A stretch of 64,000 bases of DNA, from NCBI GenBank assembly GCA_002256115.1, contig NKIK01000003.1, positions 194,280 to 258,279 on the forward strand, given 5' to 3'. This DNA comes from Burkholderiales bacterium PBB3. GTDB taxonomy: Bacteria > Pseudomonadota > Gammaproteobacteria > Burkholderiales > Burkholderiaceae_C. Numbering within the stretch: position 1 is the first letter of the stretch; each line of letters opens with the position of its first letter. Below the pieces are notes generated by a model. It worked only from the letters and a program-made list of their open reading frames with translations, made no database searches and had not been told where the DNA came from. Below, one piece after another: positions 27,173 to 49,075 of this stretch. Made by a program: the position numbers and the translations under genes.

Positions 27173-28471
27173 GTGCCATCGCCCTCCCCCACCATCCGCC
27201 GCATTGCCCACCTGGACATGGACGCGTTTTACGCGTCGGTAGAGCTGCTGCGCTACCCGCAACTCAAAGACCTGCCGGTGGTGATAGGCGGTGGGCGCGC
27301 GAATGTGGCGGCAGCCCTGGAGGTACTGCGCCAGCAAGCCGCAGAAGACGCGCCCGAGCTGGAGTGGGATGCCGCCGCGCAGCGCGCCGCACTGCGCCGC
27401 ATTCCCATCGATGCGTTTGCTCGCCTGGCGGACTACACCGGCCGCGGTGTGATCACCACCGCCACCTATGCCGCGCGCCAGTTTGGTGTGGGCTCGGCCA
27501 TGGGTCTGATGAAGGCCGCCAAGCTGTGCCCGCAGGCCATTCTTTTGCCGGTAGATTTTGAAGAATACCGGCGCTACTCGCGCCTGTTCAAATCCATCAT
27601 CACCGAGATTGCACCGCTGATGGAGGACCGCGGCGTGGACGAGGTCTACATCGACTTCACCGACGTGCCCGGCGGCCAGCGCGAGGGCGGCCGCGTGCTG
27701 GCGCGTCTGATTCAAAAGGCGATTTTGGACGCGACTGGTCTGACTTGCTCAGTGGGCGTGGCACCCAACAAACTGCTGGCCAAGATGGCCAGCGAATTCA
27801 ACAAGCCGCGCGGCATCTCTATCGTGTTTGAGGCCGATGTGCCGACCAAGGTGTGGCCGCTGGCCTGCCGCAAGATCAACGGCATTGGCCCTAAGGCGGA
27901 CGAGAAGCTCAAGCGCTTTGGTATTGAAACGATTGGCCAACTGGCCGAGCGTGATTTGCAGTGGCTGATGGATACCTTTGGCCAGCGCACTGGAGCCTGG
28001 CTGCACGCCGCCAGCCACGGCCAGGACGACCGCCCGGTGGTGACGGAAAGCGAACCCGTGAGCCTGAGCCGCGAGACAACTTTTGAGCGCGACCTGCACG
28101 CCGTGCGCGACCGCGCCGAGCTGGGGGCAGTCTTCACCCGCCTGTGCGAGCAGGTGGCGGCCGACCTGCAGCGCAAGGGCTACGTCGGCAAAACTATCGG
28201 CATCAAGCTGCGCTATGACGATTTCAGCGGCGTGACGCGCGACCTGACGGTGGAGCAGTACACCGACGATGCAAAAACCATCCGCCAACTGGCTGGCCAG
28301 TGCCTGAAACGCGCGCCGCTGCAGAAGAAGCTGCGGCTGCTGGGTGTGCGCGTGGGGGCGCTGGCAAACCGTGCCGACCTCCCTGGATTAATAGCCAAAA
28401 GTGCCTTGCAGGCCGTGGATAGTGCGGGAGCAGCTCCTGAATTAATAGCGGTTAACGGGGAGCTCTTTTAA
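27173..28471 (+). CDS. dinB: DNA polymerase IV (Y-family); GTG start chosen to avoid overlap with the divergent SBP gene. Last about 35 codons come from repeat copy A
   Basis: IRRIAHLDMDAFYASVE, SVGVAPNKLLAKMAS, little-finger region. The ORF runs through the extended repeat (…[33 protein letters not shown]). Confidence 0.85.
   Translation: MPSPSPTIRRIAHLDMDAFYASVELLRYPQLKDLPVVIGGGRANVAAALEVLRQQAAEDAPELEWDAAAQRAALRRIPIDAFARLADYTGRGVITTATYAARQFGVGSAMGLMKAAKLCPQAILLPVDFEEYRRYSRLFKSIITEIAPLMEDRGVDEVYIDFTDVPGGQREGGRVLARLIQKAILDATGLTCSVGVAPNKLLAKMASEFNKPRGISIVFEADVPTKVWPLACRKINGIGPKADEKLKRFGIETIGQLAERDLQWLMDTFGQRTGAWLHAASHGQDDRPVVTESEPVSLSRETTFERDLHAVRDRAELGAVFTRLCEQVAADLQRKGYVGKTIGIKLRYDDFSGVTRDLTVEQYTDDAKTIRQLAGQCLKRAPLQKKLRLLGVRVGALANRADLPGLIAKSALQAVDSAGAAPELIAVNGELF
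28361..28470. repeat. Dispersed repeat copy A (reverse orientation; extended about 110-bp version, core 28411-28449)
   Basis: ctggcaaaccgtgccgacctccctggattaatagccaaaagtgccttgcaggccgtggatagtgcgggagcagctcctgaattaatagcggttaacggggagctctttta. Extended form is shared with copies B and C. Confidence 0.85.
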
Positions 28472-30981: not shown

Positions 30982-32030
30982 TCTAACAAGCTATTGCGGA
31001 TAGCCAGCAGCGCGGGCAGGCAGAGCTGAAAGTGGCGAATGACCTCGGGGTCAAAGTGCGCGCCGCTTTGTGAAACTAAAAATTCAACAGCCGCATCCAC
31101 GCTCCAGGCGGCTTTGTAGGGCCGCTCAGACGTAAGGGCATCAAACACATCGGCCACGGCCACAATGCGGGCCGCCAGGGGTATGGCCTCACCCTCCAAG
31201 CCGGCCGGGTAGCCAGTGCCGTCCCACTTTTCGTGGTGATTTAGCGCAATTTTCTGGGCCAACTGCAGCAGATCGGATTCGTCATCATCGGCCAATATCA
31301 TGGCCCCGATAGCGGCGTGCGTTTGCATCGTGGCCCACTCGGCCGCGTCCAGCTTGCCTGGCTTGAGCAGGATGCTGTCAGGGATGCCAATCTTGCCCAC
31401 ATCGTGCATGGGGCTGGCGTGCAGTAGCAGGTCGCACCGCTCAATACTCCAGCCCATGCTGTTGGCTATGCACTCTGCAAACCGGCTCATGCGAATGGTG
31501 TGCAAGCCGGTTTCGTTGTCGCGGTACTCCGCGGCGCGGCCCAGGCGCTGCACCACTTGCAGACGCGTCTTGTTAAGGGCCTCGGTGCGCTCGCGCACGC
31601 GCTCTTCCAGCACTGCCTTTTGGTCAAACACCATGCGGTGTGCCAGCTGCGCGTCCAGCAAATTGCGCACCCGCATGAGCAGCTCAGCGCGGTCAAAGGG
31701 CTTGCCAATGAAGTCCCGCGCGCCACTGTTGAGCGCCTTGAGCAAGGCATCGCGCCCGTGCTGCGCTGTCATAACTACCACCGGGGGCAGCATGGAATCC
31801 TCCAGATTTTTGAGCTGCTCCATGACCGCGTAGCCATCCAGGTGCGGCATGTTGATGTCGAGCAAGATCAGGTCCGGGCGGCCCTCTTGGTAGCGCGGCA
31901 GCACCTCACGCGGGTCCTGCAAGAGTACGAGCTGGGTGTAGCCCTGTCCGGTGAGCAGTTTGTCGAGCAGCTTAAGATTGACCGGCTCGTCGTCCACCAC
32001 AAAAATGCGGGCTGGGTTGGTCTGGGTCAC
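30975..32030 (-). CDS. Response regulator with HD-GYP phosphodiesterase output domain (RpfG-like c-di-GMP PDE)
   Basis: REC (VVDDEPVNLKLL...LILLDINMPHLDG) plus HD-GYP (HDVGKIGIPD..., HHEKWDGTGYP). 7-nt overlap with the downstream kinase. Confidence 0.85.
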   Translation of the reverse strand: MTQTNPARIFVVDDEPVNLKLLDKLLTGQGYTQLVLLQDPREVLPRYQEGRPDLILLDINMPHLDGYAVMEQLKNLEDSMLPPVVVMTAQHGRDALLKALNSGARDFIGKPFDRAELLMRVRNLLDAQLAHRMVFDQKAVLEERVRERTEALNKTRLQVVQRLGRAAEYRDNETGLHTIRMSRFAECIANSMGWSIERCDLLLHASPMHDVGKIGIPDSILLKPGKLDAAEWATMQTHAAIGAMILADDDESDLLQLAQKIALNHHEKWDGTGYPAGLEGEAIPLAARIVAVADVFDALTSERPYKAAWSVDAAVEFLVSQSGAHFDPEVIRHFQLCLPALLAIRNSLLDC

Positions 32031-34561
32031 AAGGTGGTCTCTGTTGGGCTACTTTGCAGTAAATCGTCCATGGTCCAAAGGAGTACCCGCACATCCACCG
32101 GCTTGGTCAGATAGCCGTCGAAGCCGGCAGCCAGGCCCCGCGCCACATCGGCTGGCATGGCGTTGGCCGTCACGGCAACAAAGGGTACGTGCCGGAATCG
32201 CGCGTCCGCTTTCAGAATGCCCAAGACCTGGTAGCCGTCGAGTCTTGGCATATCGATATCCAGCAAAACAATGTCAGGCGTGTTGGCCAACGCCAGTTCT
32301 ATGCCTTGCTCCGGCTCGGCGGCAGACGTCAGTTTGAAGTTGGGCCGACGCGCCAATACGACTTCAATCAAGCGCAAGTTGATGGGGTTGTCGTCAATCG
32401 AGAGTACCCGGACCGTGCGCTCCAATGCGCCAGACTCCGTGGCGCAGGCGAAACCCACCTCGCAATCATCCTCGGCAGGCAGCACATCGGGGCCTTGCGG
32501 CAACACAATGCTGAACGTCGTACCCACCCCCACGGTGCTGTGCACCTCCACCGTGCCGCCCATCAGTTCGACCAAGCGCCGCGTGATGGTCAGGCCAATG
32601 CCAGTGCCTTCCACCGTGCCGGTATCGGCACCCAAACGATTAAAGGGTTGAAACAAGTCGCCCAGGCGCTCGGGGGCAATACCCGCACCCGTGTCACTGA
32701 CTGCAATGCACAGCAAGCCCTCTGGCATGACTTGTACCGACGCGGTAACGCTGCCACCGACTCGGTTGTATTTCACGGCGTTAGACAACAGGTTGATCAA
32801 CGCCTGCTTGAGCTTGGTGTGGTCGGCCCGCGCTGTCAGCCCGGCGGGTACCGCAAACTCCAGGCGCACGTTGTGTGCAGTCGCCAGGGTCTGGATCAGG
32901 TCGCGGCAGTCTTTCAGCAGTTCGGCCAGAATCACGCTTTCCAGCGATACATCCAGTTTGCCGGATTCGATTTTGGCCAGGTCCAGCACTTCATTGATCA
33001 AAGCCAACAAGTGCTGCCCGGCCTTCATGATTTCCTGCACACTGTCTTGCTGGTCGGCGTTCAGATCCTGGTCATATTCCAGCATCTGCGCAAATCCCAA
33101 AATGGCATTCATGGGCGTGCGCAACTCATGGCTCATGCTCGACAAAAAATCGGACTTGGCCAGATTGGCCCGCTCGGCCTCGTCTTTGGCCCCGGCCAAC
33201 TCCGCACGGCGCGCCAGTTCGGCGCTGAAGTCGGTAAATATATTGAAAGAGTACTGCACCCTGCCGTCGTCATCACGAATAAACCCCACATTGCTGGCCG
33301 ACGTAAAAACGGAGCCGTCTTTGCGCTGGATAGTCAGTTGGCCCATCCAGCCACGCTCGGAGGCAACCGCGTCCCGCGAAGCCAGTTTGAATGCCTCTTT
33401 TGCTTCCTTTGGCACTACTTTGGAGAAGTGTTGCCCCAAAATTTCTCCATCGCGGTAACCCAGTTCTTTTGCCTGCGCCTGGTTTTGATAGACCACGATG
33501 CCTTTGGCATCGGCAATGCCCACGCACTGATCACTGGAATCAAACACGCGTCTGAATAGTTTCAAGCGCTCCTGGACCTTCTTACGCTCTGAAATATCGG
33601 TCAAAAATGCCGTGTAACTGAGCTTGCGGTCATGTTGTAGCGGTGTGACCACCAGCTCGACCGGGAACACTTCGCCGTTTTTACGCTGGGCAGTGGCCTC
33701 TATTCTTTGACCCGGCGTAGTCATGCCAACGGCCTTGCGCCCAGGCACCAAATGGCGGTAGATACCGCGTTGGCTGGTGGGATCAAACCGCTCGGCCTCA
33801 GGCACCAACGTGCTTTGCACTGTAGCCCCCACGGCATCTTCCGCCGTCCAGCCAAATATGGTCTCGGCCCGGTGGTTCCAGGCGGTGATGTGCCCTTGCG
33901 CATCGATGCCCACCACTGCGTCGGGCACATCTGCCAACACGGCCTTGAGGTGCAGTTGCGACTCCTGCAGCTGCCAGGCGGTTTGATGCGACGCGCGCCC
34001 TACCACAATCAGCGCCGCTATACCCGCCAGCAAGACCAGCGCCACCAAACGGTCAACATCACCGCCGGTGACCAGGCCGACAGTCGCCGTGGGCAACAAA
34101 GCCCCCACCACAAAGCCCGCCATGGCCATGCGCTGCTCTGACACCGAAGCGACGATAACCGCGCTGACACAAAACAACATACTCACAAACAAGACCGCAT
34201 AGGGGCCATCAATGGGCCACATCATCAGCGCAGGCCCCACGGACCAGCACAGGCCGGAGACGGTGATCTGCAGCGCAAATACGCGCTGCCAAAAGACGAT
34301 ATTTTGTCCGGACGGAGCCGCCCTAAAGAATGCCCAACAGTTGAAACCGGCCGCTAGACACATGCAAGCCATGGCGCTGACCCAGATCACTTTGGGCTGG
34401 TGCGGCAGGTAGGGCCAAAGGACCCACGCACCAACAATGGTTGCAACGGCCGACATGGCCACATCCAACACATTTCTTCTGTAGGCCAGATACAGAAGCG
34501 CCGATTCAACGGACAAGTCGCGGTGGGGCTGGGGCATCGTTTGATGATACCCACGCACCAC
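32027..34561 (-). CDS. Second hybrid sensor histidine kinase (membrane N-terminus, PAS, HisKA, HATPase_c, receiver)
   Basis: SHELRTPMNAILGFAQML, HATPase, C-terminal REC (LSIDDNPINLRLI...VLLDIDMPRLDG). 4-nt overlap with the HD-GYP gene. Confidence 0.85.
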   Translation of the reverse strand: MVRGYHQTMPQPHRDLSVESALLYLAYRRNVLDVAMSAVATIVGAWVLWPYLPHQPKVIWVSAMACMCLAAGFNCWAFFRAAPSGQNIVFWQRVFALQITVSGLCWSVGPALMMWPIDGPYAVLFVSMLFCVSAVIVASVSEQRMAMAGFVVGALLPTATVGLVTGGDVDRLVALVLLAGIAALIVVGRASHQTAWQLQESQLHLKAVLADVPDAVVGIDAQGHITAWNHRAETIFGWTAEDAVGATVQSTLVPEAERFDPTSQRGIYRHLVPGRKAVGMTTPGQRIEATAQRKNGEVFPVELVVTPLQHDRKLSYTAFLTDISERKKVQERLKLFRRVFDSSDQCVGIADAKGIVVYQNQAQAKELGYRDGEILGQHFSKVVPKEAKEAFKLASRDAVASERGWMGQLTIQRKDGSVFTSASNVGFIRDDDGRVQYSFNIFTDFSAELARRAELAGAKDEAERANLAKSDFLSSMSHELRTPMNAILGFAQMLEYDQDLNADQQDSVQEIMKAGQHLLALINEVLDLAKIESGKLDVSLESVILAELLKDCRDLIQTLATAHNVRLEFAVPAGLTARADHTKLKQALINLLSNAVKYNRVGGSVTASVQVMPEGLLCIAVSDTGAGIAPERLGDLFQPFNRLGADTGTVEGTGIGLTITRRLVELMGGTVEVHSTVGVGTTFSIVLPQGPDVLPAEDDCEVGFACATESGALERTVRVLSIDDNPINLRLIEVVLARRPNFKLTSAAEPEQGIELALANTPDIVLLDIDMPRLDGYQVLGILKADARFRHVPFVAVTANAMPADVARGLAAGFDGYLTKPVDVRVLLWTMDDLLQSSPTETTL

Positions 34562-34577
34562 GTCAGCACAGCGTAAG

Positions 34578-34922
34578 CTACTGGTCTGTGGCGACGCCCA
34601 GCCGCCACAGCGACGTCACCTCTTTGGAGCGTGCTGCGTGCGGCGGGTCGGTGGCCACGATCCGGCCGATTCCCCGGCGCGCCAGCACCGCCAACAAAAC
34701 ACCGGTGCCCGTGCCAATATCAAAGGCGCACAGGGCCGCCACCGAAGCCACGCTAACGGCGCCGGGTGGGCCCCAGGCCTCTGCACAAGCCTGACGCGCA
34801 TCGGGGCTGCGCTTCAGAGGGACACTGTAGTCAGCCTCAAAGCCAATCAACAGCATGCCCAGCACGCGAGAGCGCTGGGCTTGGCGATGCAGATGGAAGC
34901 CTGCGGCAAAACTAAGTGCCAA
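34578..34922 (-). pseudogene. Remnant of a SAM-dependent methyltransferase gene (paralog of 47407-48393) with two internal deletions; TTG-initiated ORF
   Basis: Translation aligns with the N-terminal (AFHLHRQAQ...LLIGFEADY...), GxGxG (AFDIGTGTGVL) and C-terminal (HAARSKEVTSLWRLGVA) segments of the 47.4-kb gene. The roughly 80-aa and 130-aa middle parts are missing. Confidence 0.65.
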
Positions 34923-34990
34923 ATCGGCCTTTGAAGCCGTGGATAGTGCGGGAGCAGCTCCTGAATTAATAGCGGTTAACGGGGAGTTGT
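34921..34990. repeat. Dispersed repeat copy B (reverse), nearly identical to copy A through ...aattaatagcggttaacggggag.t.tttta
   Basis: gccaaatcggcctttgaagccgtggatagtgcgggagcagctcctgaattaatagcggttaacggggagttgtttta. Confidence 0.85.
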
Positions 34991-35020
34991 TTTAGCTTGT
35001 GGTGCATCTGCGCATCAGCA

Positions 35021-37092: not shown

Positions 37093-37578
37093 TTATAGGC
37101 CAAGAACATCACAGTGAAGTGGCCTGAGGTGAAACTTGCGGCGTTCGCGGCCCTGCCACTCACGCGGTACTTTGTCGAGTTCGCAGTTGAGTGTGACGCT
37201 GTTGACAATGCCAAACCCCAAAGCTACCCACTCAAACTCTCGCGAGTCTGATCCTGCATTTACCTTAAACCAGAATGCCTGTGTCGGGTCGCTTGAACTG
37301 GGAGGCATGCCAGGGTATCGCACCGGGGTCGCTTTCCCGGTAGCCACAACGACAAGGGCAGTACCCCGCGCGTCGGTAGTCGCGTAAATTGGGCGTTCGC
37401 AATCATCCGAGCCCAAGCTTCTGTAATCCAGGCACGTTGAGATGCCTGCAGCTCGCACTGGCTTTCCCGACTTTGTCAGCGTCACAGTAATCGGCGTAAG
37501 GACGACGTTCTCCGCATAAGCGGCAGGTACAGCCAAAGCGAGTGCTAAGGCGATATGAATGTGCCGAACGTAATACAT
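37093..37578 (-). CDS. Small secreted hypothetical protein (signal peptide MYYVRHIHIALALALAVPAAYA) in a low-GC segment
   Basis: ORF with a clear signal peptide and 4 Cys. Lower local GC than the window average. No recognisable domain. Confidence 0.4.
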   Translation of the reverse strand: MYYVRHIHIALALALAVPAAYAENVVLTPITVTLTKSGKPVRAAGISTCLDYRSLGSDDCERPIYATTDARGTALVVVATGKATPVRYPGMPPSSSDPTQAFWFKVNAGSDSREFEWVALGFGIVNSVTLNCELDKVPREWQGRERRKFHLRPLHCDVLGL

Positions 37579-37849
37579 GCTCGCGTGAAATCTACTTAAT
37601 GTCCAGAGCACCAATAAGTGCTCGATAAACTGGCTGATGCACGATATTCTGGTCATCAAATCCTCCCGAAAGTGGCTTGCAGCCTCACTTTCACTGTTTT
37701 TCGACTTTGTTAAATGGATATCGATATTCTGGCAGACCTGCCGAGACTGGCGGATACAAAACCATGTCCACAGACTCCATGAGACTGAAATTGGGTGACC
37801 GTCCTGAACGACAGCTATCACCCACAGATCGCAACGAGCAGGCTGAATC

Positions 37850-38566
37850 TCAATCGCCCAACTTTCCCCACAACTGATCAAACGCCCCCTGAAACTGCCG
37901 CACCAACGCAGCGTCATTCGTCACAACCACGTTCTCTTCGTTATGAGCCGCAGCACTGCGCGTCCAGTTGTAGCTGCCGTTCAGCAGCCACTGCCCATCA
38001 AAGATCGCAAACTTGTGGTGCATGTGCGCATCGGTGCGGTCCACGGCGGTGGGCACACCGGCGGCGCGCAGTCGGGTCACATCGCTGCCGGAGTCGGTTT
38101 CTTTGTCGTTGTCGGTGATGAAGCGCAGGGCCACGCCGCGTGCATGCGCGGCCAGCACCTCTTGGGCGATGCGGTCGTCGGACACGGTGAACACACAAAA
38201 ATCTACGCTGCGGTGGGCGCTGCGGAAGTGCTCGACGATGGTGTTCAGGCAAGCTTCACCAGGGCTAAAGAATGCGCTGGAGCGAATGGCTTGCGCTGGC
38301 GTACGGGCCACGTCCAGCGCGCGCACCACGGCCTCCGTCCAGCGCAGCACGGCCATGGGGTCTTGCTGTTCGGCCAACCGGTTGCGCGCCAGTGTGAAAG
38401 CATGGTTGCGCAGTTGGCGAAAGCCGTCTTCCGGCGGCTGGGCCTGGCGCAGGGTTTGGGCCAGGCTGTGTTTCTCTTCGTCGTCCAAGCGCAGGTCGGC
38501 CAGAGAGGCTTCCAACTGGCCTAGCAAGTTTTCCATGTCTGCGGGTGTGGCAGTCATCGTTTCCAC
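37850..38566 (-). CDS. Phospholipase D-family protein with a single HKD motif (Nuc-like endonuclease/phosphodiesterase fold); last gene of the five-gene operon
   Basis: HHKFAIFDGQWLLNGSYNWT (HxKx4Dx6GSxN). Preceded by an about 100-aa helical N-terminal region. Start lies 2 nt after the giant gene's stop. Confidence 0.75.
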   Translation of the reverse strand: METMTATPADMENLLGQLEASLADLRLDDEEKHSLAQTLRQAQPPEDGFRQLRNHAFTLARNRLAEQQDPMAVLRWTEAVVRALDVARTPAQAIRSSAFFSPGEACLNTIVEHFRSAHRSVDFCVFTVSDDRIAQEVLAAHARGVALRFITDNDKETDSGSDVTRLRAAGVPTAVDRTDAHMHHKFAIFDGQWLLNGSYNWTRSAAAHNEENVVVTNDAALVRQFQGAFDQLWGKLGD

Positions 38567-38568
38567 AC

Positions 38569-41500
38569 TCAGCCCTCGGTCTTCTTGCCACCGCCCTGGG
38601 CACGCGGTGCCCGTGGCTCGTTGGCTTTGGCCAGCAGCAGCTCCAGCCGTTTACTGATGCTGTGGTCCAGGTCCATGCGCTTCTCCGTCGCGGCGATCAG
38701 CGGCATGATGACTTTGCGGTATGTCACCGCCAACTGCAGCACGGCCTCAGCCATTTGCGCTCCCTCACTGGGTTCTTTGGGTCCCGCTGCCGGGCGCAAC
38801 TCATCAACCGACCGGCTCACATCCAGCAGTGCATTGGCAATGCGCGTAGAGCCGTCCGCATCCGCCCCACCCGCTTTGCGCTGGCGCACAAATTCGGCGC
38901 AGATGGCCTGCCAACGCGCATCCTCCTCGGGGCTTGCGGTGCCCATCAGTTGGGCCAGCTTGAGTAGGTTTTCTTGCGTGCCGGTGGTCAGGGTCTGGGC
39001 CTCACCCCGGTAGTGGTCGCGCAGCAGGGCGTCCAGTTCATCCTCATGCATCAGCCCGGTGATCTGGGCAGCCAGCTTGGTCATATTGCGGTAGCTGCCC
39101 TGTAGCTTGAAAGCGGGCTCGGTGCGGTAGTCGTCACGCTGGGCGGCTGAATCGATATAGGCCTGGTTCACCTTCAGCAGCAGATCGCGCGCGCGGAACA
39201 GCCTTTGCATGAGTGCTTTAAGCTCTTCCAGTTCGGCACTACTGTAAGCATGGGCAAAGTCGCCGCTGGCCACCTCATCCCCCTGGGCCAGGCGCACCAG
39301 CAATTGCACATCGCGCGGGTCGCGCGATGACAGGGGTGCCAGCACCGGATTGCTGGTCAGGCTGTTCTCAATATACGACTGGGCGAACAGGGCTTCGCGC
39401 CCAGCCAACACATCGCCCAGGTTGTAGATATCGGCCCGGTTGGCCAGCATGTCCGGGATCTTGAAGACCTCGCCCGACTCGGTATACGGGTTGCCCGCCA
39501 TGGCGATGGCAAAGCGCTTACCGCGCAAGTCGTAGCTGCGCGCCTGGCCTTGCCACATGCCTTCAATGCGGCGCGTGCCATCGGCCAGGCCGATGAACTT
39601 CTGCAAAAACTCCGCACTGGTGTGCTGAATGTCGTCCAGGTAGAGCATCACATTGCTGCCCATGGCCAGGCCCAGGTTCAGCTTCTCCAGCTCTTGGCGG
39701 GCAGCGCTGTTGCTGGCCGACGCAGGGTCAAGCGCCGTCACGTCATGGCCCAGTGCGGGGCAGTTGATGCGCACAAACACCAGCCCCAGCCGGTCGGCCA
39801 CATATTCCATCAGCGTGGTCTTGCCATAGCCAGGCGGCGAAATCAGCAACAACAGCCCCATGCGGTCCGTACGGCTGGTGGCACCGGTGGTGCCAATCTG
39901 CTTGGCCAGGTTGTCGCCAATCATCGGCAGGTACACCTCGTCGATCAGACGGTTGCGCACAAAAGATGACAAAGGCTTGGCCTGGAACTGGGATAAACCG
40001 AGGCGCGATTTTTCTGCGCTCAGCAGTTCGTGGTGCAAGCTTTTGAGCGCTGCAAACGCGGGCACCACCGTTTCGGCATGCGCGCGGTAGCGGCTCCAGA
40101 AGTCATTCAAATTGATCTGCAAGCTGCCTTGATTGATGCGGGCGTGTTCGCTGCGCAAACCGGTCACCGTGGCATCCAGCACCACATTCACCCTGCGGCG
40201 CTGGCCTGGCACAGCCAATACGCAGGCGGCATCGTCTACCCATGCGATGGCGGTCGGCTGGTGCGCCAGTGCAAAGGCATGCATCCAGGCACGCGCCAGC
40301 AACCAACGCTCGGCGGGTGTGGATGCATCCAGGCTGTGTTGCCAATCCAGCGCTTGGCCCAGGCGCTCCAGCTCGCGCTGCAGTGCGCTGGCCATGTCTT
40401 CGCCCGCGCCGCTGATAACCCAGGCCTGCTCTGTACCTGCAGCCCCAATCTCCCGCAGCCAATAGCTCGCGGCTTGATGGCACGCGGTCTGGTGATGCCC
40501 GTTATCAACGGACACTGGCGACAACGCGAAGCCGCTCTCTTCGGCAAACTGCAGCACGCTGTGCGCGGCCTCCACTTCCAGTTTTTGCAGGCTATCGCCA
40601 GCGCCAAAGAGGTGTTGCACTTGCAGCGCTGCACGCGCACGCCGCCGCCAAGACGCCTGCGCCTCACCCGAGCCCAAGTGCTGCCAAACCAATGTCGCCA
40701 GCGCGCGCTCTGTGGGGCCCCAAGTCAGCAAGCCTGCCTGCTCTTGCATGGGCACCAAAGCAGCAACCAAGCGCACCGCATCTTCGTCGTGCACGCCCTT
40801 TTCGTACCCTTCTTGATAACGGGCTGCGGCAAATTGGCGCACGCCCTCCAGCAGCGCCGCATGGCCGTCTTCACCTTGCGCCACCAGCGCCAGAGTTTGT
40901 GCCCAGGTCAGTGTGGCCTGCCCTTTTAGAACCTCTTCAATCCAACTTGCCGCCAAGTACTCTGCGCGGCTGATCAGCGCGGTCTCAGACGGCAGGGCTT
41001 GTTGCCAATACGGGCGATACGCGTCCAGCCGCGCGTCTTGCAGCGGTGCCCGGTAATCCGTGCCCGTCAGGTAAAAGGCCATGCTGTCGCCCAGCGGAGC
41101 CAGTGTGAGCTCCAGCGGCTGGCGGCTGATGGTGAAAGCGTGGCGGCCCAGGCGCAAATGGTTGCCGCCCTCAGACACCAGCTCGCGCTGATCACGCACC
41201 GCGCGCAAGGCGTGGTCGCGGCAAGTCTTGAGGCGCGTGTCCAGATCATCCGCAGCCACCTGGTCACCCAGGCCCCGCATGTCTGCAATCAGAGTGCGCA
41301 GCTTGGCAATCAGCAAGTCCGCCGCAAAGTAGCTGTGCACTTCTTCCAAGCCACTGAGCTGGGCCACACGGCGCTGCGCCCCGTCCAAAATGCGACCGGC
41401 CGCTGCAGCCAGAGCCTGCACGCGCTGCTGGCGCGCTTGCACCAGCGTTTGCTTGCGCGCGGTCAGCGCTTCGTAGACGGCCTCGCGTTTCTCTGTCACA

Positions 41501-43743
41501 TCGGCCAAGAACTCAGCGTGCTCGGCAAAGCGGCCCTCCAGCTCTTCCAGTTGGGCCAGCAGGCGGGTCAATGCGTCATCGCATTTTTCGGGGGTGTCGG
41601 CAAAGTCCAGCGCGTTCTCCACCGCTTGGCCAAACAATTTGAACTGGGCCTGAAACTCGGCTGCCGCCTCGCGCGAGCCCAGTGCCTTGCGTCGGTTACG
41701 CGCATCGGCTCGCAAGCGGTTGATGTCGGTGTACAGCGCAGAAATGCGCTCCAGAATGCCAGTGCGCTGCACGGCATCGCCGCCGGGCAAACCACCCAGC
41801 TGTTCGGTCAGCAGGTCCAGGCCTGCGGCCGTATCGTCCAGCCCCTGCAGAATGCTTTGTAGGCCCTGGCTGGTGGATACCTTGGGCAGCTCAGTGGCCA
41901 CTTGTGCCAGTTGCTGCTGGTGGGCGTGGAAGGCCTTTGCATCGGCCATGAAGGCCATGGCGCGCTCACCCACGCGCTGCTGCTCGGCCACCAGCTCGGT
42001 GTGCATGGCCTCTATGCGGGGCAGATCGGTGTAGCGCAGTTCTTTCAGGGTTTCCAGGTGGCCGCGGCGTTCGCGCAGGCGGCCCAGCGCCGCCACAAAG
42101 TCTTCGGGCTTGCGCCATAGCGTGCTGGCAATATCCACCACCAGTGCCTTGTGCTGGGCCTGTGCTTCGTCCAGGGCCTTGGCGGTCTCCTTGCGGATTT
42201 GCTCTACCTTCTCAAACTCGGCCAGCGTGGTGCGCGCCGCATCGCCAATGCCTTGCAGGTCTTGCAGCAAAGCACCCGCCTCGGGGTCGGCCAGCCAAAA
42301 ATAAGCGTCTGTGACGCGTCCGCATTGGCGAATCAAATCCTCATAGGCGGTGCGGGTGGGCGCTTGCTCTTGCAAGGCGCGCGCAATGCCCATCAACTCG
42401 GCAATACCGCGCACCAGCTCCGCATTGCCGATACGGCTGAAAAAGCCGGTGCCCGCATTCGCGCCGCCCGCGTACTCCTCGCTAAAAAACGGGGTTTGCC
42501 ACAGCTGCATCGGGTGCAGCCGCGTGGGCTCACCCATGCCCGCCTGAAACACCAGCACCTTGCCATCGGCAAACAGCGCGTAGCCATTGGCCACGATCGG
42601 CGCGGCCAAGGATTTATCGATCAGGTTGTAGGTAAACAGCGCATAGTGGCCGCTGACCGGCTGGTAAAACAGATACAGCACATCCTCGCCATTGGGCGAG
42701 CGCAGCATGCGCTTGAAGCGCAAATTGCGTGCAACATCTTCAGGCAAATCAAAGTGCTTGAACTCGCCCGACTGCAGGTAATAGCCACCCGGAAACACAA
42801 TGCCGTGGTCCTCCGGCAACTGCACACACGACAAGCCAATGGCATCAATGCGCGCTACCTGCAGCGTGCGCTGGTTGAAGACCAGATAGCGGGTAGTTTG
42901 TTCGCGATAGGGCCGCACGCGCAGCAAAATGAGTGCGCCCAGCTTGGCGTAGGCCACCTCGGCATCGGTGAGCGACTGGCTCTTGTCGTCCACCGGCTCG
43001 CTGTAAATGCCCAGTCCGGTTTCGGTGTTGTTCTCTACCTTAACGGTCAGGTCGCCACCCACCGTCTCCACGAATACCGTGTCCAGAATATTGATATGCG
43101 GATGCTTGCCGTCCACATGGTTTTCACGGGTGGTTGGCGTCCATTCAAAGTCGTGGCTAGGCGGTAGCGCAATGTCGCGCTCGCCACGGTTGTCCAGATA
43201 CTGCAGCGTGCCATCTGGCGACAACTGCCAGCGGAACACGCGCACGTCGTGCACTTGCTGACCTATCTGAAAAGCCGCCAGCAGCTTACCCTGCGTGACC
43301 CGCAGTTGCAGCAGTTGGGCTTGCTTGTAATAGGCGTAAAGCTCTTTGAAGTCGGATGCGAAACGCGCGTCTTCCAGAAAGCTGCCAGCCAGAGGCACAT
43401 CTTCCAGATCCTGCTCGGTACCCATGCGGTACAGCGCAAAAACATCCCCCACGCTGGTCTCTTTGCGCAGGCCAATGAAAACGTTATAGCCAAACAGCAG
43501 CAGATCGCCAATGCGCACGATGTCGCGGGCGACACAGTTGTTTTGGGTGCGGGCACGGGTGCGCAGTACCAGCGTTTGCTCGGACTTGCCAAACTCTAGC
43601 GTGCGGGCGGCATTGAGCGTTTGTGCTTTTTTAAGCAGCACTTCGCCCTGCACGGTCAGGCGATTCTTCAGCAGCTCGTAGCTATTGCTGCCAGCGACCA
43701 GACTCTCAGTGGAGTCTGCCGCCGCGGATGTGTCAGAAGGCAT
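38569..43743 (-). CDS. Giant (1,724 aa) protein with one MoxR/AAA_5-like AAA+ ATPase module in the C-terminal third; remaining ~1,280 N-terminal residues have no recognisable domain
   Basis: Walker A LLLISPPGYGKTTLMEY, Walker B VMLYLDDIQH, sensor-1-like AMAGNPYTESGEVFKIPDMLANRADIY. Long helical/coiled-coil central region (residues ~550-1000). Uninterrupted ORF with consistent codon usage. Confidence 0.8.
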   Translation of the reverse strand: MPSDTSAAADSTESLVAGSNSYELLKNRLTVQGEVLLKKAQTLNAARTLEFGKSEQTLVLRTRARTQNNCVARDIVRIGDLLLFGYNVFIGLRKETSVGDVFALYRMGTEQDLEDVPLAGSFLEDARFASDFKELYAYYKQAQLLQLRVTQGKLLAAFQIGQQVHDVRVFRWQLSPDGTLQYLDNRGERDIALPPSHDFEWTPTTRENHVDGKHPHINILDTVFVETVGGDLTVKVENNTETGLGIYSEPVDDKSQSLTDAEVAYAKLGALILLRVRPYREQTTRYLVFNQRTLQVARIDAIGLSCVQLPEDHGIVFPGGYYLQSGEFKHFDLPEDVARNLRFKRMLRSPNGEDVLYLFYQPVSGHYALFTYNLIDKSLAAPIVANGYALFADGKVLVFQAGMGEPTRLHPMQLWQTPFFSEEYAGGANAGTGFFSRIGNAELVRGIAELMGIARALQEQAPTRTAYEDLIRQCGRVTDAYFWLADPEAGALLQDLQGIGDAARTTLAEFEKVEQIRKETAKALDEAQAQHKALVVDIASTLWRKPEDFVAALGRLRERRGHLETLKELRYTDLPRIEAMHTELVAEQQRVGERAMAFMADAKAFHAHQQQLAQVATELPKVSTSQGLQSILQGLDDTAAGLDLLTEQLGGLPGGDAVQRTGILERISALYTDINRLRADARNRRKALGSREAAAEFQAQFKLFGQAVENALDFADTPEKCDDALTRLLAQLEELEGRFAEHAEFLADVTEKREAVYEALTARKQTLVQARQQRVQALAAAAGRILDGAQRRVAQLSGLEEVHSYFAADLLIAKLRTLIADMRGLGDQVAADDLDTRLKTCRDHALRAVRDQRELVSEGGNHLRLGRHAFTISRQPLELTLAPLGDSMAFYLTGTDYRAPLQDARLDAYRPYWQQALPSETALISRAEYLAASWIEEVLKGQATLTWAQTLALVAQGEDGHAALLEGVRQFAAARYQEGYEKGVHDEDAVRLVAALVPMQEQAGLLTWGPTERALATLVWQHLGSGEAQASWRRRARAALQVQHLFGAGDSLQKLEVEAAHSVLQFAEESGFALSPVSVDNGHHQTACHQAASYWLREIGAAGTEQAWVISGAGEDMASALQRELERLGQALDWQHSLDASTPAERWLLARAWMHAFALAHQPTAIAWVDDAACVLAVPGQRRRVNVVLDATVTGLRSEHARINQGSLQINLNDFWSRYRAHAETVVPAFAALKSLHHELLSAEKSRLGLSQFQAKPLSSFVRNRLIDEVYLPMIGDNLAKQIGTTGATSRTDRMGLLLLISPPGYGKTTLMEYVADRLGLVFVRINCPALGHDVTALDPASASNSAARQELEKLNLGLAMGSNVMLYLDDIQHTSAEFLQKFIGLADGTRRIEGMWQGQARSYDLRGKRFAIAMAGNPYTESGEVFKIPDMLANRADIYNLGDVLAGREALFAQSYIENSLTSNPVLAPLSSRDPRDVQLLVRLAQGDEVASGDFAHAYSSAELEELKALMQRLFRARDLLLKVNQAYIDSAAQRDDYRTEPAFKLQGSYRNMTKLAAQITGLMHEDELDALLRDHYRGEAQTLTTGTQENLLKLAQLMGTASPEEDARWQAICAEFVRQRKAGGADADGSTRIANALLDVSRSVDELRPAAGPKEPSEGAQMAEAVLQLAVTYRKVIMPLIAATEKRMDLDHSISKRLELLLAKANEPRAPRAQGGGKKTEG

Positions 43744-43751
43744 GCAGACCC

Positions 43752-44288
43752 TTACCAGTCAGCACGCAACAAGGCGACTAGCTCGTCACGGCCTGGCTGC
43801 GCCTGAAGCCACTGGCGAATGCGTGCCAGCTCATCCATGGTCTCAGCGCCGTGGCGTTGGCGCAGCACGGCTTCGCGTCCTTGGCGCAACTCGTTAGTCT
43901 GCAATTGGCGCTGCCAAGCATCGGTCAGAATCTCGTCGAGCCGGCTGCCCAGACCTGCTGCCACAAATGCCTGCCACTCGCCGCGGGCAAACCAGACGTT
44001 CTGGCACGCAGCGCAACGGTCCACGCGGAAGTCGGGCTGCGCGCCTACGCGGAAACGCTGCATCAGGCGCGCGCACGCAGGGCAATGCCGGGCGATCGGG
44101 TCTTCATCGGCAGCGATGGCTTGCGCCACCGGCGGCACCGGTGTTTTGTCGCGCCAGGCGCGGTAGTCGTCGAGTTGTAAAAGCTGGCCTTCACAACTGA
44201 CGCATTCCAGGCCCTGCAGTCCGGGTGCCAATTCGCAGACTGTGAGTTCGGTGTGGGCCTCGCAGCCGCAGCGCAGTGTTGATTTCAT
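43752..44288 (-). CDS. Double zinc-ribbon protein (two CxxC...CxxC pairs, TFIIB-like zinc-finger domain) plus helical C-terminal tail
   Basis: CGCEAH...CVSCEG and CPACARL...CAACQN. Start 15 bp after the flotillin stop; stop 8 bp before the giant gene start. Confidence 0.6.
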   Translation of the reverse strand: MKSTLRCGCEAHTELTVCELAPGLQGLECVSCEGQLLQLDDYRAWRDKTPVPPVAQAIAADEDPIARHCPACARLMQRFRVGAQPDFRVDRCAACQNVWFARGEWQAFVAAGLGSRLDEILTDAWQRQLQTNELRQGREAVLRQRHGAETMDELARIRQWLQAQPGRDELVALLRADW

Positions 44289-44303
44289 GGGTGTGCTCCT
44301 GCG

Positions 44304-46466
44304 TTACTCGGGTTTCTGGCCACTTTTGTTGGTCTTGGACAGCAAGGAGGCAATCGCCAGGTCTTTCAGCTCGCCCGACGAGTTGCCGAGCGACCCGACC
44401 AGTTGCCCCAGGTCGTCCACCATATTGCGTTTGCCCGACAGGTGATCTTTCAGCCCGATCTTCAGCGTATCGCTCTTGGCGATAGCGCCGTCGATGCCCT
44501 TGCCCACCGCCAGCGCACTGACGAAACGCTCGAAGTAGCTGCCGTCGCCGCCCACCATCTCGATCTTGGCATTGGCCAGTGCTTTGCCCAGGACTTCGGC
44601 CTGCTCTTTGGCGATGGCGGTTTGTGCATCGATGCCCTTGAGGGTCTCGGTATGCGCCATCTCCAGCCGCATGCGGTATTCCTCGTGGTCGCGCGTTTCG
44701 CTGCTCATGGCCTTCATGGCTTCAAACTTCTCGCGCAGGCCCTTGGCCTCTGCAGAGAAGCGTGCTTGCACGTTCTGGGCATCAGCTTCGCCTGCCTTGA
44801 TCGTGGCTTCGGCTCCGGCGGTGCGCACAGCCACTTCGGCCAGGCCCAGTTTCTCTTTGCCTTGCGCTTCAGCTTCCAGTTTGGCCTGCAGGCCCGTGGC
44901 TTCGGCTTGCGCGCGCGCTTCGATCACCTGCGCGTCTGCCAGGCCGGCTTTGATGGTGGCTTCCACGCCCGCTGTACGCACCGCCACATCGGCCAGGCCC
45001 AGCTTCTCTTTGCCTTGCGCTTCAGCCTGGTTACGCGCCTCAATCACATGCACATCCGACAGACCCTTTTTCTCGGTGGCGTCGGCAGTCACCATCATCA
45101 CGCGGGCGGCCGCCAGGCCAGGGGCGGCACTCACTGCCTCCATGCCTTCCGCCTCCCGCTTTTTGGACTCGGCGTTCTTCTCTGACACCTTGAGTCGCGC
45201 ATCCGCCATGGCGACTTCTTCGCTAGCTTTGTGGCGTGCACTGCGTTCTTGCGACTCTGCCGCCTTCACTTCCGCAATCATTTTTTCTTCGGCCTGACCT
45301 TCAGCCAGGATGATGGTGGAGCGCTTGGTGCGCTCTGCCTCCGCTACCACGCGCAGTTCCTTGATGGCTTCTTCTTGCTCGGCCACGGTGCGGTCCACCA
45401 CGATGCGTTCGCGGATCACGTCGGCAATGGCTTTCTTTTGCACCTCCAGCGCGCGTTCTTTGTCGATCTTCTGCAGGGCCACTTCTTTCTCGCGGTCCAC
45501 CACTTCCAGGTCGCGCGCACGAATCACTTTTTCTTCTTCAATGGCCACCGCGCGCTTGCGGTTGTTCTCGGCCACTTCTTTTTCGCGCAATGCGTTTTCG
45601 TTTTGCACTGCTACCTGCTGCTCGCCTTGCAGGCGCGCCATCTCGGATTTGGTGCGTTCCTCAGATTGGATCTTGGAAGTCTCGGCCTCTTCGCGAGCGC
45701 GCATGGTGGCCACTTCCCGCTGCTGGCGGGCTTGGGCGTCGGCGGCCTGGCGATCCAGCTCCAGCATGGTCTCCTGGGTTTCCACGTTTTTCTTCTTGAT
45801 CTGCATCTCTTCGTTGCGGCGCAGCTCGTTGGTGCGCACGCTCTCCACCGCCGTCAGCTCGGTGATTTTCTTGATGCCCTGGGCGTCCAGAATATTGCTC
45901 GCGTCCAGCTTGGACACCGGTGTTTGCTCCAGGTAGTCAATGGCAGCATCTTCGAGCACATAGCCCGACAGGTCGTCGCCAATCTGGCGAATGATTTCGT
46001 CGCGGAAATGGTCGCGCGCCTGGTACAGGTCCACAAATTCCATGGACTTGCCCACGGTTTTGAGCGCCTCTGAAAACTTGGAGGAGAACAGGTCTTCCAA
46101 CGCATCCTGGTTGGAGGCTCGCTCGCAGCCCACGCCTTGGGCGACCTTCAAAACGTCTTCCGCGGTTTTGTTGACGCGTACGAAAAACTTGACCTTGATG
46201 TCGGCGCGGATGTTGTCCTTGCAGATCAGCCCTTCGCGGCCCGAACGGTCAATCTCAATGGTCTTGACCGAGATGTCCATCAACTCGGCCTTGTGGATGA
46301 TGGGGTAGACCATGCAGCCTGTGAAAGTGACCGTAGGCTCAGCGCGCATGGTGTTCACGATCAGGGCGTGGCCCTGCTCAATCTTCCGGTAAAAGCGCGC
46401 AAACAATACAAACATGCCGAACACGATGACCGTGATGACGGCTGCTGCGACGATGATGGGTTCCAT
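44304..46466 (-). CDS. Flotillin-like SPFH/band-7 protein (YqiK family) with very long Glu/Ala-rich coiled-coil tail
   Basis: N-terminal TM segment, SPFH domain (HALIVNTMRAEPTVTF...), about 350 aa of EA-rich heptads with an internal ~41-aa duplicated unit. Confidence 0.85.
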   Translation of the reverse strand: MEPIIVAAAVITVIVFGMFVLFARFYRKIEQGHALIVNTMRAEPTVTFTGCMVYPIIHKAELMDISVKTIEIDRSGREGLICKDNIRADIKVKFFVRVNKTAEDVLKVAQGVGCERASNQDALEDLFSSKFSEALKTVGKSMEFVDLYQARDHFRDEIIRQIGDDLSGYVLEDAAIDYLEQTPVSKLDASNILDAQGIKKITELTAVESVRTNELRRNEEMQIKKKNVETQETMLELDRQAADAQARQQREVATMRAREEAETSKIQSEERTKSEMARLQGEQQVAVQNENALREKEVAENNRKRAVAIEEEKVIRARDLEVVDREKEVALQKIDKERALEVQKKAIADVIRERIVVDRTVAEQEEAIKELRVVAEAERTKRSTIILAEGQAEEKMIAEVKAAESQERSARHKASEEVAMADARLKVSEKNAESKKREAEGMEAVSAAPGLAAARVMMVTADATEKKGLSDVHVIEARNQAEAQGKEKLGLADVAVRTAGVEATIKAGLADAQVIEARAQAEATGLQAKLEAEAQGKEKLGLAEVAVRTAGAEATIKAGEADAQNVQARFSAEAKGLREKFEAMKAMSSETRDHEEYRMRLEMAHTETLKGIDAQTAIAKEQAEVLGKALANAKIEMVGGDGSYFERFVSALAVGKGIDGAIAKSDTLKIGLKDHLSGKRNMVDDLGQLVGSLGNSSGELKDLAIASLLSKTNKSGQKPE
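44770..45035. repeat. Intragenic tandem duplication of about 153 bp inside the flotillin coiled-coil region
   Basis: Protein segments AQGKEKLGLADVAVRTAGVEATIKAGLADAQVIEARAQAEA and AQGKEKLGLAEVAVRTAGAEATIKAGEADAQNVQARFSAEA. The corresponding DNA is near-identical. Confidence 0.6.
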
Positions 46467-46523
46467 GAAAACTCCCTAGTGAAACAAATTACTTAAACGA
46501 TCGAAGAGGCAGTGCGCAGGGCG

Positions 46524-47153
46524 CTAAGGCTCCGCCACCACCTTGTAGCGTGCTGTCTTTTCGTCATAGCCCACGATGCGTGCACTGCTACCGCGTGCCA
46601 GTGCATTGGGCACAGGCGTCCAGATGCGAATATTGATGCTGGCACCGTGCTGGGCCACCTCGGCGCGGCCCATCTGCTCATCCACCGTTTGGGTCAGCAC
46701 TTTGCAGGTCTGCCCCACCAGCGATGCATTGTTGATGGCAGCGTGGGTGACGAACAAACCACGCAGCGGCCGAATCATGCGGGCACTGACCGTGACCGCC
46801 AAAGACAGGCTGGCCAGGGCCAACACAGCACCCGCGCCGTAGTTGGCTGCGGCACCACCCAACCAGGGCAGCACCCACATGGCCCCCAGGCAGCTCAGTG
46901 TCCAAGCGACCAATATGACCAGGCTGACCGCGATAGAAAATGGAACCCCGTGCAGGCCGAAAGCGACCACATAGCTGGCCACCGTGCTGATCTCGTAGCC
47001 GTCCACATCGGCGGCAGAGCCAGGCTCCAGGTCCAGAGACTCTAAATCGACCACGCCCAGCAGGGCCAGCAGCCAGTAAAAGATCACGACCCCTAAAAAA
47101 GTCGTGAAGAGTGCGGTGGGAAATGCGACCACCGCGTCCAAAAAGCTCAGCAT
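46524..47153 (-). CDS. YqiJ/NfeD-like inner-membrane protein (DUF1449; TM helices plus C-terminal OB-fold); first gene of the operon
   Basis: Multi-TM N-terminus. C-terminal LVGQTCKVLTQTVDEQMGRAEV...RIWT resembles the NfeD OB-fold. Positioned immediately upstream of flotillin as in the E. coli yqiJ-yqiK pair. Confidence 0.65.
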   Translation of the reverse strand: MLSFLDAVVAFPTALFTTFLGVVIFYWLLALLGVVDLESLDLEPGSAADVDGYEISTVASYVVAFGLHGVPFSIAVSLVILVAWTLSCLGAMWVLPWLGGAAANYGAGAVLALASLSLAVTVSARMIRPLRGLFVTHAAINNASLVGQTCKVLTQTVDEQMGRAEVAQHGASINIRIWTPVPNALARGSSARIVGYDEKTARYKVVAEP

Positions 47154-47337: not shown

Positions 47338-47375
47338 CCCATGGATAGTGCGGGAGCAGCTTCTGAATTGATAGC
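47338..47375. repeat. Dispersed repeat copy D (reverse), in the 5' region of the operon
   Basis: cccatggatagtgcgggagcagcttctgaattgatagc. Confidence 0.8.
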
Positions 47376-47406: not shown

Positions 47407-48770
47407 CTAGCGTGCGGGTGCCACCGCCAACCGCCACAGCGAGGTGACCTCTAGCGCACGCGCCGCGTGCAGCGGGTCGGCCGCATCAAAGGCCTTGCCA
47501 TGCACCGGCTTGGTATCCAGCCGCCCCAGCACCTGCAGGCCCGCGCCAGCAATCGCGTCCAACAATTCAGCGCGGCTGCGCAGGCCCAGGTGTTCGGCCA
47601 AATCCGAGAGGATCAGCCAGCCCTCGCCCTGCGGCTCCAAGTGCGCGGCCAGGCCCGCCAAAAAGCCCAGCAGCATAGCGCTGCCTTCGTCATACACCGC
47701 GTGCTCTATGGGTGAGCTGGGCCGGGCGGGTAGCCACGGCGGGTTGCACACGATCAGATGCGCCAGCCCTGGCGGGAATAGGGATGTCTGCAACAACTGC
47801 ACCGGCGAATCAGCGCGGCCCGCCACGCCCAGCCTCTGCAAATTTTCAGCCGCGCAGGCCAGGGCGCGCGGGTCCAGATCGGTGGCCACGATATGGCCCA
47901 CACCCCGGCGCGCCAGCACCGCAGATAACACGCCCGTGCCCACACCAATGTCAAACGCCGTCAGCTTGGCGGCGGCCTGCGCACCGTGGGCTCCTTGGAC
48001 TCCTTGGACTACTTGGACACTTGGCAGCGGTGCCTGCTGCACCAAGCTCACATACTCACCCCGCTGCGGAGAAAACACGCCGTAGTGCGGGTGGATGCGG
48101 TTGTGGGGCGCAGCGCCCAGGGCGGGCACTTCCACACCGTTTTTGCGCCACTCGTGCGCGCTGATCAGGCCCAGCAGCTCACGCAATGACGCTACCGAAG
48201 CCACAGCGTCCGCACCCGGCGGGCCCCAAGCCTCAGCACAGGCCTGGCGCGCATCGGGGGCGCGCTTGAGTGCGATACCGTAATCCGCCTCAAAGCCAAT
48301 CAGAAGCATGCCCAGCACGCGCGCACGCTGCGCCTGGGCTTGGCGGTGCAAATGAAAGGCAGTGGCCGGATTCGATGCCTTTTCGGCCACTGAGGCCGTG
48401 GATAGTGCGGGAGCAGCTCCTGAATTAATAGCATTGCGCTCTGGCGCGCCCGCTAGTTGCTTTGCCCTCTTGATGGCCTTGGCACCCTTGGCGGCTTTGC
48501 CGCTGGGGCCCGACGCATCGGCCCGCCGCGCGAGCGCCTGCAGCATCTGCCGCGCGTTTTGAAAATCACCCCGCCACAGCAGCGCCGTGCCTTCGCAGGC
48601 CAGGCGGTAAGCGACATCGGCGCTCAGGGTGTCATCGGCCAGCACCACGCGCTTGGGTGGGCTGACACCACGCTCTGAGCGCCACTGCGCGCTGCAGGGC
48701 TGGCCGGCTTCTTGCCAGTGGATGCGGGCTTCGCCCGATGTTGGTGAAGTCGTCATAAGTTCAGTAGCCA
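47407..48770 (-). CDS. Class I SAM-dependent methyltransferase (MTS 'small methyltransferase domain', NPPW motif) with N-terminal ~110-aa domain and in-frame repeat-derived linker; start ATG overlaps the ccdB stop
   Basis: GxGxG AFDIGVGTGVLSAV, acidic loop VATDLDPRAL, catalytic LIVCNPPW. ORF runs through repeat copy E (…[15 protein letters not shown]…). Upstream segment (VVLADDTLSADVAYRLACEGTALLWRGDF…) also looks coding. Confidence 0.6.
48394..48432. repeat. Dispersed repeat copy E (reverse), in-frame inside the methyltransferase ORF
   Basis: ggccgtggatagtgcgggagcagctcctgaattaatagc. Confidence 0.85.
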
Positions 48771-49075
48771 TGGAGGGCGTATTCCAGGGCGTCCCAAATG
48801 GCTTCGGCATCGCCTTGCAGGTTGGCTACTGGGCGGCGCAGATCGCCGGGCTCATGGGAGGTAATCGCCAAAGTCTCCAACACAAGCATTTCACCCGCAA
48901 CACTCAGCCAGGGATTCAGTGTGGTGGGAGGCGCTGTTTGCGTATCCGGGCGCGCCAACGCCACGGTGATCACCGCTACGGGGCGTTTCAGAAAATTGCT
49001 TTGAATGCCGACGACGAAGGGATGACTGTCGCGCAACTCTTCGACCGGGTTGGGGTACACATCGAACTGAGCCAT
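48761..49075 (-). CDS. ccdB: CcdB-family toxin (gyrase poison fold)
   Basis: 104 aa; MAQFDVYPNP...HPFVVGIQSNFL...LNPWLSVAGEMLVLETLAI parallels CcdB (MQFKVYTY...VDVQSD...). Abuts the antitoxin ORF. Confidence 0.6.
   Translation of the reverse strand: MAQFDVYPNPVEELRDSHPFVVGIQSNFLKRPVAVITVALARPDTQTAPPTTLNPWLSVAGEMLVLETLAITSHEPGDLRRPVANLQGDAEAIWDALEYALHGY

Follow-up and report, generated by a model that had tools for sequence, protein, structure and literature searches.

A stretch of 64,000 nucleotides from a 258-kb contig of the metagenome-assembled genome (MAG) of Burkholderiales bacterium PBB3, called the window below, carries between a hybrid histidine kinase gene and a hipBA cassette a short open reading frame (ORF) that resembles parts of an intact methyltransferase (MTase) gene of the same window. 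The question raised by this locus is whether the fragment is a decayed copy of the intact gene, as a preliminary description of the sequence had proposed, or the remainder of a gene that stood in this very place. In our literature search on MAG PBB3, only a linaridin-discovery paper was found, where the MAG is merely named. The features discussed are collected in Table 1, and related loci are designated by L numbers.

Structure of the remnant and of the intact gene

We used positions 34300-35300 as a blastn query against the window itself, compared the translations by BLASTP, and set the block limits by global alignment. The three methods agree that the ORF at 34578-34922 matches, in order, three segments of the ORF at 47407-48770, as had been described from the translations. 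On the minus strand, 34591-34973 corresponds to three separate collinear parts of the MTase gene at 47407-48810, with 77-80% nucleotide identity. The blastn matches pair 34737-34973 with 48190-48432 (78%, E 1.4e-53), 34648-34727 with 47879-47958 (80%, E 5e-15) and 34598-34651 with 47427-47480 (80%, E 2e-7). At the protein level, the three segments gave E values of 6e-30, 6e-14 and 2e-7 with BLASTP.

Two internal deletions separate these segments. Their sizes had been put at about 80 and about 130 residues, with the NPPW motif among the missing parts, and global alignment gave 74 and 134 codons. At the first, 231 nt are gone and 9 unaligned nt stand in their place, a net loss of 222 nt; the second removed 402 nt, which correspond to residues ~312-445 of the intact gene, N356-P-P-W359 among them. 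The short repeats reported at the second junction were found as a 4-nt microhomology, CCGA, within GCCACCGA/GCGGCCGA, and the first junction shows ragged similarity only. A 6-nt indel also distinguishes the remnant from the intact gene. All three indels (6, 222 and 402 nt) are multiples of three and the reading frame is kept. A further loss, not stressed in the preliminary description, is that codons 1-126 of the intact gene have no counterpart in the remnant: homology begins at the repeat that lies inside the intact gene. An in-frame stop is found just upstream of this point, and the remnant ORF itself contains no internal stops.

An independent Logan assembly (run SRR5749613) equals window positions 34951-28433 with one mismatch in 6519 nt. 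The contiguity of remnant and kinase gene and the internal deletions are thus present in both the MAG and the Logan assembly, and the deletions cannot be put down to a single assembler. For the joint between hipA and the repeat, the MAG assembly is the sole source, as the Logan contig ends inside the repeat.

The product of the intact gene comprises a conserved N-domain, a variable linker, a helical middle segment and a HemK/MTS-like class I SAM domain with NPPW. An ATG start at 48756 suits the family alignment better than the 467-aa mechanical ORF, and the part of that ORF at 48756-48810 overlaps the 3' end of ccdB by 50 nt. The protein matches PF05175 (2.5e-8), TIGR03534 (2.7e-11, far below cutoff) and the release-factor glutamine MTases of the PDB (2e-5), and it passes none of the equivalog cutoffs. 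Members of the family are found very widely among Burkholderiales and the neighbouring orders: a protein search gave 8000 hits, and of 600 candidate stretches from species-representative genomes, 599 proved to be members. It shares motif I (DIGxGTG) and NPPW with the HemK/PrmC N5-glutamine and MTS-type class I MTases, but differs from them by its extra conserved N-domain and its middle helical segment.

Of the motifs shared with those enzymes, the remnant retains motif I alone, as FDIGTGTGV aligned to FDIGVGTGV of the intact protein. It also keeps the helical segment FHLHRQ...AWGPPG and the C-terminal tail DP(L>P)HAAR..SLWRL, together with the native stop position. The deletions have removed motif IV (NPPW) along with the remainder of the Rossmann fold, and the family-specific N-terminal domain (WRSERG...LACEGTALLWRGDF) is absent. 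Pfam returned a sub-threshold Methyltransf_23 match (17.6 bits vs a cutoff of 27). With motif IV and the N-domain gone, the remnant cannot be a working methyltransferase. Its earlier classification as a pseudogene of the same MTase family therefore stands, and CFE43_04230 would be better labelled a methyltransferase pseudogene fragment than a hypothetical protein.

Table 1. Coordinates of the remnant, the intact MTase gene, the repeat copies and neighbouring features in the window
Feature	Position	Strand	Remarks
Group II intron domains D1-D4-6	6134-6356	-	Rfam 166.6 bits, E 2.6e-48
Repeat copy adjoining the intron match	~6389-6447		
DinB-like (IMS) gene	27173-28468	+	
Full-length repeat at DinB-like (IMS) 3' end	28394..28470	+	closest match to the remnant's copy, 51 nt identical
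HK2	28537-30924	-	extra PAS hybrid histidine kinase paralog
PAS/HisKA/HATPase/receiver hybrid histidine kinase	32027..34537	-	true start is the ATG near 34537
Remnant ORF	34578..34922	-	114 aa, TTG start; annotated hypothetical protein CFE43_04230 in source MAG
Homology block 3	34591..34651	-	intact gene 47420-47480, 77%
Deletion junction 2	34651/34652	-	CCGA microhomology; loss of 134 codons incl. NPPW
Homology block 2	34652..34727	-	intact gene 47883-47958, 79%
Deletion junction 1	34728-34736	-	net loss of 74 codons
Homology block 1	34737..34973	-	intact gene 48190-48432, 78-80%, one 6-nt in-frame indel
Repeat at remnant 5' edge	34918..34994	-	core and inner part in same register as in-gene copy
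Outer arm AAAACAACTCCCCGTTAAC of the remnant's repeat copy	~34975-34994	-	typical of intergenic copies only
hipA	35021-36373	-	toxin-antitoxin cassette with hipB
hipB	36370-36690	-	toxin-antitoxin cassette with hipA
Repeat on hipB side of hipBA	36858-36912		
Accessory block	37093..47153	-	six genes: o274, PLD-like nuclease, 1724-aa DUF3686/DUF7902/AAA ATPase, Zn-ribbon protein, o720, o209
Repeat just downstream of intact MTase	47339..47375	-	
Intact MTase	47407..48810	-	mechanical ORF 467 aa; annotated start 48756, 449 aa
In-gene repeat	48377..48432	-	translated in frame in MTase linker; same position in L081, L084
CcdB/CcdA-like toxin-antitoxin pair	48761-49530	-	between ECH and MTase
GGDEF/EAL relic	50502-50705	+	in-frame stops
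Repeat upstream of YaaD	53494-53549		orthologous position in L084 (~605-662)

Position of the remnant and divergence of the two sequences

The place occupied by the remnant is one at which relatives have an intact gene. In L087 and L089, an ortholog of the kinase (65-72% amino acid identity) comes directly after an intact MTase gene, and the same adjacency is found in L091 and L092, whose kinases are the closest two orthologs that the database contains. The stop codon of the remnant, the spacer of ~40 nt and the kinase start align with the MTase-to-kinase junctions of these four relatives. The remnant thus lies at the ancestral MTase position and was not copied to a new site, which speaks against the proposed segmental duplication.

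In its left part, the window shows the order M10 - DUF3597 - NlpC - FMN_dh - RskA - SBP - IMS - HK2 - RR-HD - HK - remnant; after the remnant come hipAB and the accessory genes, then MTase - CcdBA - ECH - QueF - Abh - YaaD. One flank matches L092/L081, the other L084/L091, and no other gene is duplicated. ECH, with or without CcdAB, followed by the MTase gene is conserved upstream in L081-L085, L087 and L091. By this gene order, the two outer flanks are the halves of one conserved locus, split by ~12.4 kb of accessory DNA.

Several neighbouring genes also deserve description. The HK2 paralog, between RR-HD and the DinB-like gene, is ~40% identical to the L092 kinase and is absent from L091 and L092. 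The CcdB of the window is only ~35% identical to the CcdB found at the same place in L081/L084, and the N-terminus of the P0004 ORF (L085 2362-3765) resembles that of the CcdA-like protein of the window; the MTase ORF call there may thus have a decayed cassette fused to it. Between ECH and QueF, the GGDEF/EAL relic corresponds to residues 726-831 of an 857-aa L084 gene (47% identity). A full GGDEF/EAL gene stands at that place in L082-L084 and L087, and the relic is a second pseudogene scar of the locus.

We then compared the two MTase sequences of the window codon by codon. Over 123 codons, remnant and intact gene differ by a dS of 0.64 and a dN of 0.13 (dN/dS 0.21), with 18, 15 and 44 differences at codon positions 1, 2 and 3. 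Restricting the comparison to 98 strictly coding codons gave a dS of 0.82 (0.54-1.36) and an omega of 0.13; for the same codons, dS is 0.67 between the intact gene and L084, 0.77 between the intact gene and L081, and 0.40 between L081 and L084. The changes seen in the remnant only are 21 synonymous and 8 non-synonymous ones, with a pN/pS of 0.14 that compares with 0.11-0.19 in the working lineages. Replacements at family-invariant residues are limited to two, A->S in RARVL and L->P in DPLHAAR. The dS of 0.64-0.82 together with the dN/dS of 0.13-0.21 indicates that nearly all of the divergence accrued while both were working genes in separate lineages, and this pattern does not fit the proposal that the remnant is a decayed copy of the resident gene. 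The pair are diverged alleles, as different as orthologs of different species. As a rough estimate from the 21/8 change counts, the pseudogene phase would make up less than ~10% of the separate history of the remnant.

Sliding identity to eight relatives revealed no sharp mosaic boundary in the intact gene, and its dS to L081/L084 (0.60-0.63) is no different from the values of the flanking genes (0.56-1.1), so that neither comparison tells which side was imported.

A dispersed repeat and a proposed history of the locus

The 5' edge of the remnant coincides with a copy of a repeat of 60-77 bp, which is present in at least 10 copies in the window and in further copies in L081, L082 and L084; the family is seen only in the PBB3/L081/L084 subclade. 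Its core reads, in gene sense, GCTATTAATTCAGGAGCTGCTCCCGCACTATCCACGG. The repeat has no match in Rfam. Fold z-scores of -1.33 to +0.60 reveal no significant structure, and a hairpin with T-tract is formed only with the outer arm. In the intact gene and in the two closest relatives, L081 (P0002) and L084 (P0003), a repeat insert is found at one codon position, and L085, L087 and L089 show it in part. This common position shows that the repeat is an old internal part of the gene and not a flanking passenger. The unit of repeat plus MTase that had been taken for the duplicated segment is therefore replaced by an in-frame piece of the MTase linker that marks the cut point.

The observation that the repeat next to the remnant is in the register of the intact gene was borne out: the distance from the copy at 34918-34994 to FHLHRQ is identical to that of the in-gene copy at 48377-48432. 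The two copies differ at their outer end. The outer arm AAAACAACTCCCCGTTAAC is found in intergenic copies (window 28.4 kb, L081 near 7800, L084 near 10060), and all three in-gene copies have coding sequence in its stead, whereas the copy of the remnant has the arm. Its inner part could belong to either type, in-gene or intergenic. Since the remnant's copy carries an outer arm of intergenic type, the break looks like the product of a repeat-by-repeat recombination, and 34918-34994 is the presumed recombination joint. The full-length copy at 28394-28470 bounds the HK2-RR-HK-remnant module on the side opposite this joint. The direct repeats at 48377-48432, 47339-47375, 36858-36912 and 34918-34994 are members of a family of at least 10 copies and do not form a unique att pair.

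Other copies of the repeat show features of their own. Between 28 and 54 kb, every copy is direct in orientation and stands at a gene-module boundary, and hipBA is bracketed exactly by the copies at 34918-34994 and 36858-36912. At the 3' end of the DinB-like gene, the full-length copy supplies the last ~20 codons and the stop, and on the plus strand its outer arm and core yield a hairpin followed by a T-tract, a terminator-like arrangement; the 3' end of the L081 IMS gene also bears the repeat. Elsewhere in the window, a copy adjoins a match to group II intron domains.

The accessory DNA looks defence-island-like. PADLOC gave only weak PLD-domain matches (MkoB/DpdK/DrmC-like) and no recognised system, and neither Pfam nor PADLOC detected an integrase or recombinase among its six large ORFs (37.1-47.2 kb) and hipBA. 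The last gene of the block, o209, follows the MTase gene in L090 too, the sequence of L090 ending just after it.

Our preferred reading, which we consider rather probable, is that the remnant is an in-place 3' relic of the MTase gene, in a locus that was rebuilt by repeat-linked recombination of two haplotypes and afterwards suffered deletions. The ancestral locus would have carried a divergent enoyl-CoA hydratase gene, then MTase, kinase and RR-HD regulator genes in this order, and a convergent DinB-like gene. In this clade the repeat stands in frame in the MTase linker, and further direct copies mark the module boundaries behind the MTase gene, ahead of hipB, behind hipA and at the 3' end of the DinB-like gene. 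Recombination would then have taken place between two diverged forms of this variable locus. In the first, the MTase gene may have been followed by accessory genes ending in hipBA and an intergenic repeat; in the second, by the kinase and regulator genes. We infer a crossover between the MTase repeat inside the gene and an intergenic copy that lay either behind hipA or at the DinB end. Its product would have an intact MTase gene on the hydratase side, ~12.4 kb of accessory DNA, and a 5'-truncated MTase gene, opening within a hybrid repeat and still joined to its kinase gene. The truncated copy afterwards lost 74 and 134 codons, the second loss at the CCGA microhomology, and gained a few replacements at otherwise invariant residues. 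Neither of the two predicted parental arrangements turned up in a close relative: in the search for kinase homologs, the nearest is 65% identical, and a HipA scan of metagenomes returned hipBA homologs in unrelated contexts only.

A broader role of the repeat was also considered. It seems unlikely, on present grounds, that the repeat serves a cassette-like variable region of this Comamonadaceae subclade as its recombination handle, with modules shuffled between haplotypes and with the frame-preserving indels of the relic resulting from selection for translation into the kinase. In such a region, the modules bounded by direct copies could be the 3' part of the MTase gene, the PLD/DUF3686 block, hipBA and the kinase-regulator pair, and the repeat could be tolerated in frame in two conserved genes, in the MTase linker and in the DinB-like C-terminus.

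Alternative origins of the remnant

The location of the joint in a repeat bears on whether the contig is a chimera, in which the assembler joined two co-occurring related populations through a shared repeat so that no genome holds both pieces. One population would have MTase - accessory block - hipBA - repeat, and the other an in-place, already internally deleted MTase gene upstream of the kinase gene. The source is indeed a metagenome-assembled genome, the repeat at the joint has a 51-nt exact match to another copy, and the Logan contig starts and stops inside repeat copies and provides no bridge to hipA. Moreover, the genes on the left side are relatively closer to L081 than those on the right side (ratio 0.6-0.7 vs 0.8-1.0), but this difference is small next to the gene-to-gene variation of dS. 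An exact repeat of at most 51 nt is below the typical read length, so that read and pair support should resolve it. The GC3 of the accessory DNA is ordinary and similar on both sides of the hipA-remnant joint, and the halves are complementary parts of one locus. Both assemblies show the remnant with its internal deletions, so that a broken MTase gene exists in any case. We judge a chimera to be quite unlikely.

We give still less credit, and regard as improbable, a duplication within the genome, by which the repeat and the 3' part of the MTase gene at 47.4-48.4 kb were inserted near the kinase gene and then altered by point mutation and two deletions. In nucleotide identity, the resident gene (79.3%) is slightly nearer to the remnant than L081, L084 and L085 are (73-77%), and the equal register of the repeat in both copies would also follow from such an event. 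A neighbour-joining bootstrap on the 98 codons places the remnant inside a narrow clade, with the intact gene as its sister in 35% of replicates and L081+L084 in 25%, and first and second codon positions favour L081 as sister. The intact gene, however, is nearer to L081/L084 than to the remnant, and its copy of the repeat lacks the outer arm found at the remnant. The duplicate would also have had to land, by coincidence, at the MTase site of four relatives with a homologous stop-spacer-kinase junction, and its species-level dS and low dN/dS misfit the neutral decay of a truncated copy.

Retention of the 114-aa ORF as an expressed mini-protein, or of the fragment for expression signals of the kinase, is highly improbable. 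It would agree with the three in-frame indels, the open frame, the preservation of the native stop ~40 nt before the kinase start and the low pN/pS of the branch, but chance alone, at ~1/27 to 1/9, could have produced the in-frame pattern, the low pN/pS is accounted for by divergence that predates inactivation, and two family-invariant residues are replaced. The TTG start is weak, and no promoter-like site was detected in 34300-35300. A search for the remnant in related genomes, suggested in the preliminary description as a check, found no homolog of the same architecture: the 90 related loci hold no extra partial copy, a protein search with the remnant matched the PBB3 entry alone, and a 30-mer across the deletion junction has no match in the JGI metagenomes. 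An integrase-mediated island with a duplicated target 3' end is not supported by the Pfam and PADLOC scans of the block, which found no integrase or recombinase gene.

The rearrangement of two diverged haplotypes at the repeat thus remains our preferred reading. Synteny in relatives and the pattern of synonymous and non-synonymous changes identify the fragment as the stay-at-home piece and the two copies as diverged alleles. "Duplicate plus decay", when deduced from similarity alone, can err on direction and history. The locus offers a clean small example of a short dispersed repeat that stands in frame inside conserved genes and probably also served as the breakpoint in this hotspot of toxin-antitoxin and defence-like cargo. 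Its value is mainly for annotation and method, and it opens no long-standing question.

Among known systems, the arrangement resembles the gene relics at island borders, with a 5'-truncated and internally deleted copy at one border of the accessory block and an intact, diverged allele at the other. It differs from them in that no integrase or att site was found, and in that the joint is a 60-77 bp repeat inside the target coding sequence and not a tRNA or 3'-end att core. The repeat itself has the many dispersed copies and the conserved core of REP-, MITE- or RPE-like repeats. Rickettsia palindromic elements (RPE) are short repeats inserted in frame in protein-coding genes, as Ogata et al. reportedly showed in 2000. 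Like them, the PBB3 repeat is translated within a conserved protein, in the MTase linker; on the other strand it forms the C-terminal tail and stop of the DinB-like protein, and the insert is kept across related species. In contrast to RPE, it gave no significant palindromic fold, and its family was seen in one subclade only.

The inferred process is closest to homology-facilitated illegitimate recombination, which de Vries and Wackernagel (2002) are said to have described during the uptake of related DNA. Here too, of the two crossovers one would have fallen within extended homology, the other within a short similar patch, leaving a duplicated, truncated piece of the anchor gene, but the patch in PBB3 would be a ~50-60 bp repeat rather than a microhomology of 3-10 bp. 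The remnant is real but dead, an ordinary scar of genome rearrangement and a new instance of known processes.
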